Source: Candidatus Hodarchaeum mangrovi (lineage in GTDB: Archaea; Asgardarchaeota; Heimdallarchaeia; Hodarchaeales; Hodarchaeaceae). Taken from it: a stretch of 40,457 nt of DNA. A model generated the notes under the pieces. That model was not told where the DNA came from and ran no database searches. It was given only the letters and a program-made list of their open reading frames with translations. The stretch lies in assembly GCA_016839515.1 (NCBI GenBank), contig JAEOUE010000056.1, forward strand, positions 1 through 40,457, given 5' to 3'. The translations under genes were made by a program, and so were the position numbers. The first letter of the stretch is position 1. Each line of letters begins with the position of its first letter. This document shows positions 3-3,836 of this stretch, piece after piece.

Positions 3-617
3 GCAGATAGAACAGTAGAAACATATTCTTCAGGACAGAAAATGAAAATGGTTTTTGCCCGAGCTTTAATTAATGATGCTCCAATCTTAATGTTAGATGA
101 ACCTACTAATACTTTAGATGTAAAGGAAGCCCGTCGACTCCGAAAGATTGTTAAAGAACAAAATGAAGACTATAATAAAACTATCATATTTTGCACACAT
201 CTTATGCATGAAGCTGAGGAATTATGCCATAGAGTTGGCATTATCGATCATGGCCAAATTATTGCACTTGATCAACCTAGTAAATTGATAAATAGTTTAG
301 AAGAAAATGATATTCTTAGGATTGAAGGACAAATCCCTGATATAGCCATACAAATAATTCAGGATCTACCAGGCATATTATCAGCAAATATTCTAACCAA
401 ACGAGTAAACAATGGGTCAACTGAAGAAAAACCTTACCTTAACGTAGTTTGTAAAGACAGTCGCCAAGCCCTACCTGAAATTATTACTGCATTAAACAAT
501 CATGGAGCAATAATAAGGAATATTGATAAGAAAGATACAACTCTTGAAGATGTTTTTGTTAATATCACTGGCCGATCTTTAATGGATGACACAAGACTAG
601 AAAAATCGGTAAATTAA
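3..617 (+). CDS. ABC transporter ATP-binding protein (DrrA/NodI-like), 5' truncated by window edge
   Basis: The frame is open upstream of the track start at 42 (ADRTVETYSSGQKMKMVFARAL, containing the signature motif YSSGQ). Walker B ILMLDEPT, H-loop CTH, C-terminal TLEDVF typical of ABC-2 exporter ATPases. Confidence 0.93.
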   Translation, partial: ADRTVETYSSGQKMKMVFARALINDAPILMLDEPTNTLDVKEARRLRKIVKEQNEDYNKTIIFCTHLMHEAEELCHRVGIIDHGQIIALDQPSKLINSLEENDILRIEGQIPDIAIQIIQDLPGILSANILTKRVNNGSTEEKPYLNVVCKDSRQALPEIITALNNHGAIIRNIDKKDTTLEDVFVNITGRSLMDDTRLEKSVN

Positions 618-633
618 GAAGGTAGGTTTCAAA

Positions 634-1500
634 TTGTCTCTCTTATCGTCAAAAGTAGGTCTCAGAGAACATCTAGGGGTTGTATGGGGTACATTTATTG
701 TCCGAATTAAGACTATTTCCCGATATAAAGGAATGCTTTTCATGGACATCCTGATGCCCATTCTTTTTGCAGCTATGCCTATTTTACTCGGCCAGGCTCT
801 TGCAGGATCTATATCTGCTGCTTCAGATAATTTTGAACAAAATACAGGATTAATTGGGGCAAATTATGTTGCTTTTATTATTATAGGAGCGAATGTCTTC
901 TCGACAGTGACTACTTCTCTTTGGTTGTTTGGATTTTTCATCCGAAGAGAACAGACACTAGGAACTCTAGAATCTTTATTTATGACTCCTGCTCATCAAA
1001 TCACTATTTTGGCAGGATTAACTTTGTATGTAGAAGTTAGATCAATTATTACCTTCATAGCTGGTTATTTTTTTGGCTGTTTACTTTTTAACATAAACCC
1101 TCTACAAGGTCAAGCAGGATTAGCATTTGGTATTTTGCTTATTGGACTAATCCCTATATATGGCCTTTCTTTCTTATTAGGAGCACTTATATTAAAGATA
1201 AAGCAGGCCAATTCTTTATTAAATACCTTTCAATGGTTTCTAGGGATAATTATGGGTGTATTCTTTCCCATAACAGTCCTCCCTGTTTTTTTTCAAATCT
1301 TTGCTTATATTTTTCCAGGTTTTTGGTTGAATTATAGCATTCAAGCTGCTTTAATGGATTTAAAATGGTTTTTCTTCAATATATATGGTCATCTTGCCAT
1401 TATTTTTGCTTTTGCTTTAATTTGCCCATTAATTGGTTACTGGATTTTTGCTAAGGCAGAGGCAAGAAGTAAAAGCGGAGAAGGTATAGGACAGTTCTAG
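634..1500 (+). CDS. ABC-2 type transporter permease
   Basis: About 6 hydrophobic segments, RREQTLGTLESLFMTP motif, GVFFPITVLP; TTG start; follows the ATPase. Confidence 0.9.
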   Translation: MSLLSSKVGLREHLGVVWGTFIVRIKTISRYKGMLFMDILMPILFAAMPILLGQALAGSISAASDNFEQNTGLIGANYVAFIIIGANVFSTVTTSLWLFGFFIRREQTLGTLESLFMTPAHQITILAGLTLYVEVRSIITFIAGYFFGCLLFNINPLQGQAGLAFGILLIGLIPIYGLSFLLGALILKIKQANSLLNTFQWFLGIIMGVFFPITVLPVFFQIFAYIFPGFWLNYSIQAALMDLKWFFFNIYGHLAIIFAFALICPLIGYWIFAKAEARSKSGEGIGQF

Positions 1501-1511
1501 GAGGAAAAGAA

Positions 1512-2351
1512 ATGGTATTGTCAATAGAGGAACAATCAAAACTTCATGGGGTTAAAGCATGGTGGTATCAGTTTCTAGCAATGACCAAGAAGGAATTTAT
1601 TGTCTTAACTCGCTATAAATTCTCATTTATTATGAGCTTTTTACAGGTAATGGTCATTATGTTTATTTTTACATTTGCAGCGATAATATTGACTCCACCA
1701 GATAAAGCATCATATGGAGTGGGATTAATGTTTTATTCTTTTGTACTTTTCATGTTTTTTTCGACTGCGTTATGGGATATTGGTAATTCTCTCCGTGAAG
1801 AACAATACCAAGGAACTCTAGAGTCCCTTTTTATGGCTCCAATCAATTATTTCTCTAGCCTAATCTCCCGAATATTATCAAATGTGTTATGGACAATTCT
1901 GAACATATTAGTCAGTTTTATATTTATAGCTCTTGTTTTTGGCCGATTACCTATCGGAAATCTATTAATGGGAATGATTATTTTACTTTTGAGTCTTTTT
2001 GTTTGTTTTGGATTCGCTTTTGGCTTTGCGGGGTTAGCTCTAAGATATAAAGAATCAATGAATACTTTAACGAATTTTCTGCAGTTTATGGTCATGATTG
2101 TTTGTGCTATGTTTTTCCCTTTCTCAGCTCTACCAGAAGTGATTCAATGGATAGCCCGAATTATACCACTATCCTACTGTGTTGATTTATTTAGGACCAC
2201 AATGATAGGAATTTCACCTGAACTTTTACCCTTTGAATGGGAATTTGGAATAATATTCCTCTCTGCAATCTTATTACCAATTTTGGGAGTAATTTTTTTT
2301 CAAAAAACTGTGAAAACTGCAAAAAAAGAAGGAACCATTGCTGAGTATTAG
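1512..2351 (+). CDS. ABC-2 type transporter permease (paralog of the preceding gene)
   Basis: REEQYQGTLESLFMAP, FFPFSALP, IIPLSY motifs; GAGGA RBS upstream. Confidence 0.9.
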   Translation: MVLSIEEQSKLHGVKAWWYQFLAMTKKEFIVLTRYKFSFIMSFLQVMVIMFIFTFAAIILTPPDKASYGVGLMFYSFVLFMFFSTALWDIGNSLREEQYQGTLESLFMAPINYFSSLISRILSNVLWTILNILVSFIFIALVFGRLPIGNLLMGMIILLLSLFVCFGFAFGFAGLALRYKESMNTLTNFLQFMVMIVCAMFFPFSALPEVIQWIARIIPLSYCVDLFRTTMIGISPELLPFEWEFGIIFLSAILLPILGVIFFQKTVKTAKKEGTIAEY

Positions 2352-2612: not shown

Positions 2613-2783
2613 TTAATCAATATGCATTCCAATATAGTGATTTAGCCAAGGACATCCAATAGGATTGAATTCAGCACCTACATTACATTGTTCAAGGTAA
2701 TCACAAATTAGACAGGGAGAATCCCAAGGTTTAGTAAGAATAGGATAGTTTTCAAGTAGTAAGATTTCATCCATAGACAACAT
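2613..2783 (-). CDS. 56-aa small protein, stand-alone RPC34/RPC39/TFE-beta-like 4-Cys (putative 4Fe-4S) domain; missed by the ORF track
   Basis: Manual translation MLSMDEILLLENYPILTKPWDSPCLICDYLEQCNVGAEFNPIGCPWLNHYIGMHID*. Pattern PC-x2-C-x5-C-x7-P-x2-C-x2-L; GAGG RBS 5 nt before ATG; GC-richer than the flanks; followed by T-rich tracts on the coding strand. Confidence 0.8.
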   Translation of the reverse strand: MLSMDEILLLENYPILTKPWDSPCLICDYLEQCNVGAEFNPIGCPWLNHYIGMHID

Positions 2784-3008
2784 TTCTTCCTCAAGATAAA
2801 CCTAAATCAGTTATTGAATCGTTTACTTATGAGAATATTTCTTTTTCTCAAAAAATTACTTAAACCAAAAAATAAGAAATTCTTTTTAATAATTTTAAGA
2901 ACGATCAAAAGAAAAAACACATTTAGAACAGGAAAATCTGCTCTCTAAAATAATAGAAGAACCCTTGAACTTCACATATAATAAAATTTGCCACATTAGG
3001 TGAAAAAA

Positions 3009-3836
3009 ATGGTACTTTCAGGTGTATTTATTTTCCCACACGGAAGTTTGATCTTGAATCCCACAAAAAAGGGAGTAAGTAAATCAGTAAAAACTCTCAA
3101 CCATAAAATGATAGAAATAGCAGGAAATATAAAAAATTTAGATCCTAATTTATGCATTTTAATCACTCCACATGGGATAAGTCTCTCTCATGATTATGGG
3201 TTCTATGTTAATGAAACTGCCAAAGGAACAGCGGAATGGGAAGGGGATTATGCAGAATACAAGACCCAAATTAGTCTAGATATAAAAAGAACAAATGAAT
3301 TATATCAAAAGCTTCAAGAAAAAAAGCTTCCTTTAAGTACAATTACAGCCTTTACAAGTAGTGTTAATGCACCCCTAAGATGGGGTGAGGTCGTTCCATT
3401 ATATTTTTTAGAAAAAATAAGCATGAAATATATTATTTTCTCACTTCCAACAAGACGATATTCTCAAATTAAAAATATGACCTTTGAATTACTTCAAATA
3501 GGCGATTCGTTGCGAGATTTTGCGAAAAAAAGTTCTGAAAAAGTTATTATAATTATTAGTGCAGATCTAGCCCACACTCATGATAAAAATGGTCCATATG
3601 GTTTTTCAGAGAAAGCAGAAGAGTTTGATCAAATAATTGAAAAATGGGTTAAAGAGGGAGGACAAGAAGACATATTACTAGATCAAGCAAGTAGTATTCT
3701 TGATGAAGCACTGGTTTGCGGATTCGCAGGGTTTATAATAGTCCAAGGAATACTGAAAAAAACACAATTAAGGTCAAACTTTTATTTAAGAGCACACCCC
3801 ACATATTATGGAATGATGATCGCTAGTTTTATGTGA
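3009..3836 (+). CDS. LigB/class III extradiol dioxygenase subunit B (MEMO-like fold) family protein
   Basis: FPHG, ITPHG, ISADLAH, FD, CG and PTYYGM motifs. ATG at 3009 preferred because the GTG at 3000 lies within the GGTGA RBS. Confidence 0.8.
   Translation: MVLSGVFIFPHGSLILNPTKKGVSKSVKTLNHKMIEIAGNIKNLDPNLCILITPHGISLSHDYGFYVNETAKGTAEWEGDYAEYKTQISLDIKRTNELYQKLQEKKLPLSTITAFTSSVNAPLRWGEVVPLYFLEKISMKYIIFSLPTRRYSQIKNMTFELLQIGDSLRDFAKKSSEKVIIIISADLAHTHDKNGPYGFSEKAEEFDQIIEKWVKEGGQEDILLDQASSILDEALVCGFAGFIIVQGILKKTQLRSNFYLRAHPTYYGMMIASFM

Follow-up and report, generated by a model that had tools for sequence, protein, structure and literature searches.

A 56-residue four-cysteine protein as a probable minimal form of the transcription factor subunit TFE-beta in Hodarchaeales

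Contig JAEOUE010000056.1 of Candidatus Hodarchaeum mangrovi (assembly GCA_016839515.1), analysed here over its 40,457 nt and referred to as the window, carries on the minus strand at 2613-2783 a gene for a protein of 56 amino acids (aa) with four regularly spaced cysteines. This gene is probably the Hodarchaeales gene for TFE-beta, cut down to the C-terminal cubane [4Fe-4S] domain and about 20 linker residues, and we read its product as a natural minimal TFE-beta, neither a competitor of a longer TFE-beta nor half of a split one. TFE-beta is the archaeal counterpart of RPC34/RPC6 and TFIIE-beta of eukaryotes, and the TFE-beta/RPC34 family connects TFE, an initiation factor of archaea, with eukaryotic TFIIE and with the RPC62/39 subcomplex of RNA polymerase III (Pol III). 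The natural forms described combine a winged helix (WH) with an iron-sulfur (Fe-S) domain in Crenarchaeota and many other archaea, or consist of the WH only in haloarchaea; yeast C34 and TFIIE-beta are variants that lack the cluster. The features of the gene, all read in window coordinates, are as follows.

2613..2783, minus strand: coding sequence of the 56-aa Fe-S mini-protein, with its stop codon TAA at 2613-2615 (open reading frame listing, orthologs, dN/dS).
2631..2720, minus strand: four-Cys domain, residues 22-51 (C24, C27, C33, C44), a homolog of the [4Fe-4S] domain found in TFE-beta/RPC34 (human RPC6) (RPC6 alignment, hhalign, invariant Cys).
2721..2783, minus strand: short conserved N-terminal helix and linker, residues 1-21 (M-S-M-E-E-L-L-T-x-E-N-Y-P-x-L-x-x-P-W-D) (family alignments).
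2789..2792, minus strand: Shine-Dalgarno-like GAGG, 5 nt upstream of the ATG (read from the sequence).
2802..2804, minus strand: in-frame TAG, the seventh codon upstream (read from the sequence), which makes a stop-to-stop frame of 62 codons.

The translation of the open reading frame (ORF) is MLSMDEILLLENYPILTKPWDSPCLICDYLEQCNVGAEFNPIGCPWLNHYIGMHID. Its cysteines are spaced C24-x2-C27-x5-C33-x10-C44, with P23 directly before the first, P41-x2 before the fourth and W46, L47 and Y50 past the fourth, and an AlphaFold 2 (AF2) model, with a predicted local distance difference test (pLDDT) score of 82.6, places a helix at residues 4-12. The first-pass annotation of this DNA had described the ORF, the spacing C-x2-C-x5-C-x10-C, a ribosome-binding site of its own and a TAG seven codons upstream, and the sequence bears all of these out. 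It had also placed a divergent gene at about 225 nt; that gene, of the LigB family, does lie there, starting at 3000, at a measured distance of 216 nt. Because the in-frame TAG ends the reading frame on the upstream side, the mini-protein cannot carry a further N-terminal domain.

The ORF is a protein-coding gene under strong purifying selection. A word-index search returned five short proteins (45-59 aa, 63-98% identity), the named ones labelled Candidatus Hodarchaeales or Hodarchaeum, in line with an Asgard host for the window, and a narrow profile built from the short Hodarchaeales mini-proteins (A1) found exactly one copy in 20 of 24 Hodarchaeales genomes: 18 of 22 in the genus and both in a second family. 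Among the 18 is the genome of the window itself (G000; 4.0 Mb in 348 contigs, 91% complete, with the window as contig C258). All 20 copies sit in stop-to-stop frames of 56-107 codons, and a GAGG- or AAGGA-type element stands at the same place before the gene in each of the 18 congeneric orthologs inspected. All 49 aligned family members retain the four Cys, and at least 90% of them have P23 and P41; this agrees with the spacing of the TFE-beta/RPC34 Fe-S domain, C-x2-C-x5-C-x(10-12)-C, with Pro ahead of the first Cys and Pro-x2 ahead of the fourth. Selection was measured on 48 gapless codons of 17 congeneric orthologs, with one sequence carrying an indel (L021) and two from family f2 left out. 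Variable sites were far more frequent at third than at second codon positions (45/48 vs 14/48), the mean proportion of synonymous differences (pS) was saturated at 0.77 against a mean nonsynonymous proportion (pN) of 0.14, and dN/dS had a median of 0.065 and a maximum of 0.24 over the 59 of 136 congeneric pairs with finite dS. In public records the orthologs have been called as genes, and the named entries of the short family, mostly from Hodarchaeales, are all labelled 'hypothetical protein'. The DNA of the window is represented by 20 listed entries from 7 studies, all of them contigs and none of them RNA.

The relationship of the mini-protein to TFE-beta and RPC34 emerges when family profiles are used. 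A broader alignment of 16 short family members (A2), compared with the sequences of the PDB, had human RPC6 as its best match (7a6h_P, residues 284-315; E=2.2e-4), in an alignment that is gapless and superimposes all four Cys. Five of the 16 A2 members match the Pfam family RNA_pol_Rpc34 (PF05158) below its cut-off, with a best E of 7.3e-5. Comparison by hhalign of the mini-proteins (A1) with a profile of longer Asgard proteins described below (A3) gave a probability of 98.3% and E=2.3e-14 over residues 12-56, and the longer proteins in turn match human RPC6 at E=7.5e-13. In the family alignments the W-D ahead of the first Cys of the mini-protein is the counterpart of a W-x-T-L linker that follows the WH in the longer proteins. 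The significant relationship to characterised members of the family thus appears only transitively, through profiles. The first-pass annotation's naming of the protein as an RPC34/TFE-beta-type Fe-S module lacking a WH is upheld by this chain of matches: a profile match exists, and so does a conserved short form under purifying selection. The Rpc34/TFE-beta match came through the family profiles, with no significant one for the single protein.

Two members of the A1 search results need comment. An exhaustive HMMER search with this profile returned 10 proteins at E<=1e-3, all of 45-93 aa save one repeat protein of 560 aa (P0009), which we regard as spurious; an 89-aa protein (P0012) is probably a partial Loki-type long form and groups with family f20 in the tree.

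The longer relatives are widespread in Asgard archaea. When A2 was run over 400 Asgard genomes a match was found in 370, including 86 of 90 high-quality ones, and nearly always as a single match; among the matches listed, no more than 3 genomes have two, and one of those is a fragment. The 130 non-Hodarchaeales matches listed lie in open frames of 100-330 aa with two exceptions, frames of 60 and 69 aa that appear to be fragments. The earlier impression from the word-index search that no longer homologs exist was a false negative, corrected by this whole-genome profile search. We read 29 non-Hodarchaeales loci, of which 27 hold a long form; the remaining two are the 69-aa fragment (L044) and an entry at the same place as another locus (L072, at L070). 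The long forms read span 126-329 aa; in them a linker with W-x-T-L at its end joins a WH-like region to the four-Cys domain that follows, the WH-like region being found ahead of the Fe-S domain in all of them save one (L060, in genome G397). Profile A3 was built from 13 long forms, two of whose rows were mis-trimmed (L059 lacks the end of the Fe-S domain and L061 some terminal residues); its match to RPC6 stands on the correctly trimmed rows as well. That match comprises two stretches, corresponding to WH2 and the Fe-S domain, and isolated structures of RPC39 WH2 were matched too. Because A3 matches RPC6 over both domains, the Asgard long forms are homologs of TFE-beta/RPC34, in agreement with a review, available in part, that states TFE-beta to be present in the Asgard superphylum (PMC7289017).

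Some long forms have additional features. Those of family f20 (L043 and L045-L052, about 200 aa) bear an extra N-terminal C-x2-C-x9-H-x-C knuckle, similar to C2HC, and a charged linker ahead of the WH; in Pfam they give only weak zf-CHCC and zf-C2HC matches, and Pfam searches with the Loki-type long forms recognised weak Zn-finger matches only. Two long forms of family f19 (L062, 329 aa; L063, 249 aa) carry N-terminal low-complexity extensions of 100-170 residues, rich in Lys, Ser, Thr and Ala and reminiscent of basic tails, ahead of the WH and Fe-S core. The exceptional protein L060 (G397:C20, 1857-2240, plus strand) is 128 aa long; its N-terminus is rich in Lys, the Fe-S domain is followed by a C-terminal tail, no WH can be recognised, and a Pfam search with it returned nothing. 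A form without a recognisable WH thus occurs in another Asgard lineage too, a distant one.

Neither a full-length TFE-beta nor a separate WH half was detected in Hodarchaeales. PF05158 was found above its cut-off in none of six Hodarchaeales genomes, in a search whose positive control, Sulfolobus, was detected, and for PF02186 (TFIIE_beta) the genome of the window gave nothing above the cut-off. A further profile (A4), made from the WH halves of eight long forms belonging to the Hodarchaeales' own class, found nothing in five Hodarchaeales genomes even at E<=10, among them a single-contig genome of 4.9 Mb and one that is 99% complete, whereas it recovered its target in five of five same-class genomes outside its building set (E from 9e-5 to 4.5e-28). 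With the upstream TAG, the frames of 56-107 aa and the missing WH half, the mini-protein does not have the canonical architecture of WH plus Fe-S domain, and the Hodarchaeales genomes, as far as these profiles reach, hold only the short form of TFE-beta. The first-pass annotation had suggested checking for a full-length TFE-beta in the genome, and the searches with PF05158, A2 and PF02186 detected none. Two of the roles it had proposed lose their footing here: a competitor or modulator of TFE-alpha/beta presupposes a full-length TFE-beta, which was not detected in these genomes, and half of a split TFE-beta presupposes a WH half, which was not found.

Candidates raised by the weaker matches were set aside. 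The best PF05158 match in the window's own genome (8.2 bits), a 228-aa protein on contig C59, is a double-WH protein with no Cys and is not TFE-beta. The weak WH matches of A3 and PF05158 in Hodarchaeales look, by reading of the sequences and without a family search, like Lrp/AsnC-type, PadR-like and membrane double-WH proteins. An apparent upstream extension of the match in one genome (G010) is the end of a NadB-like gene read through three stops.

In the window's own genome, TFE-beta is missing from the site that it occupies in other Asgard archaea. Neighbouring genes are named here from our reading of their sequences (FtsJ, Trm1, TFB, SRP19, S8e and NadB). A gene of about 205 aa resembling FtsJ/RlmE adjoins the long form in 18 of 21 loci compared, together with a Trm1-like gene of about 390 aa in 16, and a TFB-like gene adjoins it in four. 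Family f4 genomes have the genes in the order S8e-like, SRP19-like, a gene of about 104 aa, TFE-beta, FtsJ and Trm1. The corresponding locus of the window's genome (L103, G000:C153:48095-51688) reads SRP19, a gap of 24 nt, FtsJ and Trm1, with no TFE-beta; the gene of about 104 aa that lies between SRP19 and FtsJ in f4 is likewise absent.

If the mini-protein is a TFE-beta, its partner should be TFE-alpha. A TFE-alpha of 206 aa is encoded in the window's genome (PF02002, E=1.5e-10; L078:1345-1962, G000:C86:33131-33748), and TFE-alpha is present in 23 of 24 Hodarchaeales genomes. We co-folded this protein (alignment A6) with the mini-protein (alignment A5) and a 4Fe-4S cluster, alongside three controls. 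The predicted complex had a median score of 0.81 against 0.04 for the best control, a result in which likeness to known Pol III or TFIIE structures may play a part. In the calibration of such scores, from which the present run differs by its own alignments and ligand, the mark was attained for 58 of 80 complexes of known structure and for 2 of 110 mismatched protein pairs. At least 95% of contacts are common to the runs, the pLDDT of the partner is at least 82, and the modelled interface brings residues 7-16, 116-130 and 172-187 of TFE-alpha together with residues 14-55 of the mini-protein. On reading of its sequence, Hodarchaeales TFE-alpha also has an acidic stretch of about 20 residues inserted near the start of its winged helix, and it ends in a long helical tail, which the model sets against the mini-protein.

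These modelled contacts can be compared with those known for Saccharolobus solfataricus TFE from Blombach et al. (2015, PMC4495717), whose text was available in part. There the WH of TFE-beta is dispensable for dimerisation and clamp binding and the Fe-S domain is vital; the Fe-S part is sufficient for binding TFE-alpha and the clamp, and the interface takes in the WH and the tail of the alpha subunit. A core of alpha-WH and beta-FeS 'can trigger DNA melting', and the beta WH further stabilises the pre-initiation complex. Because the co-fold contacts fit this biochemical map, we read the mini-protein as a natural minimal TFE-beta. Its four Cys would hold a [4Fe-4S] cluster, and the folded module is predicted to dock on TFE-alpha at the N-terminal helix of its winged helix, the next helix and the C-terminal tail. 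The heterodimer would then sit on the RNA polymerase clamp and aid promoter opening, presumably without the extra stabilisation of the pre-initiation complex that the beta winged helix gives in Saccharolobus. Dimerisation of characterised TFE depends on the cluster, so initiation with such a TFE may be sensitive to oxidative or iron stress.

Several results weigh against a minimal TFE-beta. No copy of the mini gene was found in 4 of the 22 genus genomes (71%, 91%, 93% and 94% complete), which is odd for a general factor unless the gaps lie in the assemblies. Taken alone, the window protein has no significant Pfam match (its best, E=2.1, is to an unrelated family) and no PF05158 match, and a NCBIfam search with it returned nothing. 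A phmmer search of the PDB sequences with the single protein gave LIM-type proteins and human RPC6, the latter at E=0.75, where residues 285-314 align without a gap and each of the four Cys has its counterpart; the RPC6 match disappeared with the narrow profile A1, which left just chance LIM and Zn matches. No family member reaches the gathering cut-off of PF05158 (28.4 bits). Searches with the AF2 model, which lacks the cluster around which the fold is built, were no stronger: Foldseek (pdb) gave RPC6 (8ity_P) as its best match at a non-significant E=7.4, and VIA-align (pdb_via_wide) gave nothing at Z>=2. The co-fold with TFE-alpha, which the first-pass annotation had suggested, separates from its controls, and it may nevertheless reflect a memory of solved Pol III or TFIIE complexes.

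The remaining objections concern the origin of the gene. In a tree of 49 Fe-S domains, which is poorly resolved (60 columns, 20 of 46 inner branches open), the mini-proteins are not nested in the long-form clade of their own class, and family f2 joins an Fe-S-only protein of genome G033 on a very long branch (support 89/76). The mini gene also lies away from the ancestral TFE-beta locus, between a NadB-like gene and a gene of about 465 aa. Because the minis fall outside the long forms of their class, descent from an older Fe-S-only paralog is possible, and truncation with relocation is possible as well. The genome G033, from another family of the same class, holds on one contig (L070, G033:C138, plus strand) a 181-aa gene with WH and Fe-S domain at 1246-1788 and an 87-aa Fe-S-only copy at 1967-2227, about 180 nt downstream and before an FtsJ-like gene. 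This pair may be a present-day case of the arrangement that gave rise to the Hodarchaeales mini gene.

These observations are what speaks for an alternative in which the mini-protein is an old Fe-S-only paralog that stood beside the long form in an ancestor and had a distinct role, for example as a redox- or iron-sensing regulator binding TFE-alpha or RNA polymerase, the canonical TFE-beta having been lost later. We consider this unlikely but not negligible. The G033 pair, the position outside the ancestral locus and the grouping of f2 with the G033 protein all fit it; the placement of the latter is unreliable, however, because of the few columns, the open branches and a branch length of 5.4, and paired matches are as scarce in the 400-genome survey as described above. 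Moreover, the mini-protein would in that case still be the sole possible beta-type partner of TFE-alpha, because no long form is left. A related reading, which we hold to be speculative, starts from the same ancient Fe-S-only paralog: Hodarchaeales TFE, a general initiation factor, would have been remodelled into TFE-alpha and a separate [4Fe-4S] module of 56 aa, which serves mainly as a detachable redox or iron switch, the intact cluster licensing TFE-alpha for promoter opening and the oxidised module falling off and globally retuning transcription. If true, it would show the Fe-S domain to be an autonomous, exchangeable module of the TFIIE and RPC62-39 system.

That the mini-protein is instead the C-terminal half of a split TFE-beta, its WH half lying elsewhere in the genome and too diverged to be recognised, seems very improbable to us. 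WH domains do diverge fast and weak WH matches do occur in Hodarchaeales genomes; yet A4 found nothing in five genomes of this order at E<=10 while recovering every control, the weak matches look, by reading of their sequences and without a family search, like members of other WH types (the membrane proteins being anchored, with a double WH), and no WH gene stands beside the mini gene in 18 of 18 Hodarchaeales loci or is left at the ancestral locus of the window's genome. An unrelated small Cys-rich metal-binding protein, for example one that binds Zn, resembling RPC34 by convergence is hardly credible: the single sequence scores equally against LIM-type Zn proteins and RPC6 and the structure searches gave no significant match, but intermediate sequences link the mini-protein continuously to the Fe-S domain of WH plus Fe-S proteins, and these match RPC6 over two domains.

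The surroundings of the gene differ between congeners. In the window it is flanked by an ABC-2-type transporter set, an ATPase fragment and two permeases, at 3-2351 (plus strand), and by the LigB-family dioxygenase-like gene at 3000-3836 (plus strand). This set and the LigB-family gene occur in some congeners only; in others the NadB-like gene and the gene of about 465 aa are the immediate neighbours of the mini gene, so the neighbourhood is undergoing reshuffling.

The proposed minimal TFE-beta compares with the known systems as follows. It shares with S. solfataricus TFE-beta a four-Cys domain of [4Fe-4S] type; it differs in having no N-terminal winged helix whatever and in its length, 56 aa against about 125 aa as judged from residue numbers in the available part of the same paper (PMC4495717). 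It is the counterpart of the engineered deletion 1-73 (delta-WH) of S. solfataricus TFE-beta, which in that account still dimerises and binds the clamp (PMC4495717). The reduction of TFE-beta to one of two domains is lineage-specific also in Haloferax volcanii and other haloarchaea, and it forms a mirror image: haloarchaeal TFE-beta, in the accessible parts of two papers, keeps the WH without a [4Fe-4S] cluster (PMC5861453, PMC7289017), and Hodarchaeales keep the Fe-S domain without the WH.

Human RPC6/RPC39 (POLR3F; 7a6h chain P), yeast Rpc34 and PF05158 share with the mini-protein an Fe-S domain, aligned without gaps in RPC6 (284-315), with four Cys, a Pro before the first and before the fourth, and an aromatic residue after the fourth. 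RPC6 carries three winged helices upstream of this domain. It is a stable subunit of its polymerase, and the mini-protein falls below the Pfam cut-off. Tandem WH domains are stated in the available part of Blombach et al. (PMC4495717). The Asgard long forms have a homologous Fe-S domain and, like the mini-protein, are typically single copy, with a WH where the mini-protein has none; unlike theirs, the mini gene lies at a different genomic place and not beside FtsJ/RlmE-like and Trm1-like genes.

In our survey of the Asgard and Hodarchaeales literature, with most subscription journals and supplementary files outside its scope, no prior description of an Fe-S-only TFE-beta was found; a 2026 paper in which Hodarchaeales and TFE are both named does not, in the part of its text that was available, discuss TFE-beta.

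Beside the forms with both domains and with the WH only, a form that naturally consists of the Fe-S domain fills the third place in TFE-beta architecture, empty until now, and the mini-protein would correspond in nature to the delta-WH construct, for which dimerisation and clamp binding have been seen in vitro. It also means that a subunit of a general transcription factor has been labelled 'hypothetical protein' by automated annotation, and that no family library recognised the copy in the window. At 56 residues the protein offers a compact system for studying how the cluster controls TFE-alpha binding. Hodarchaeales are the order placed closest to eukaryotes; as the mini form occurs in this order, TFE-beta should not be scored there as plainly present or plainly absent in reconstructions of transcription in the eukaryotic ancestor.

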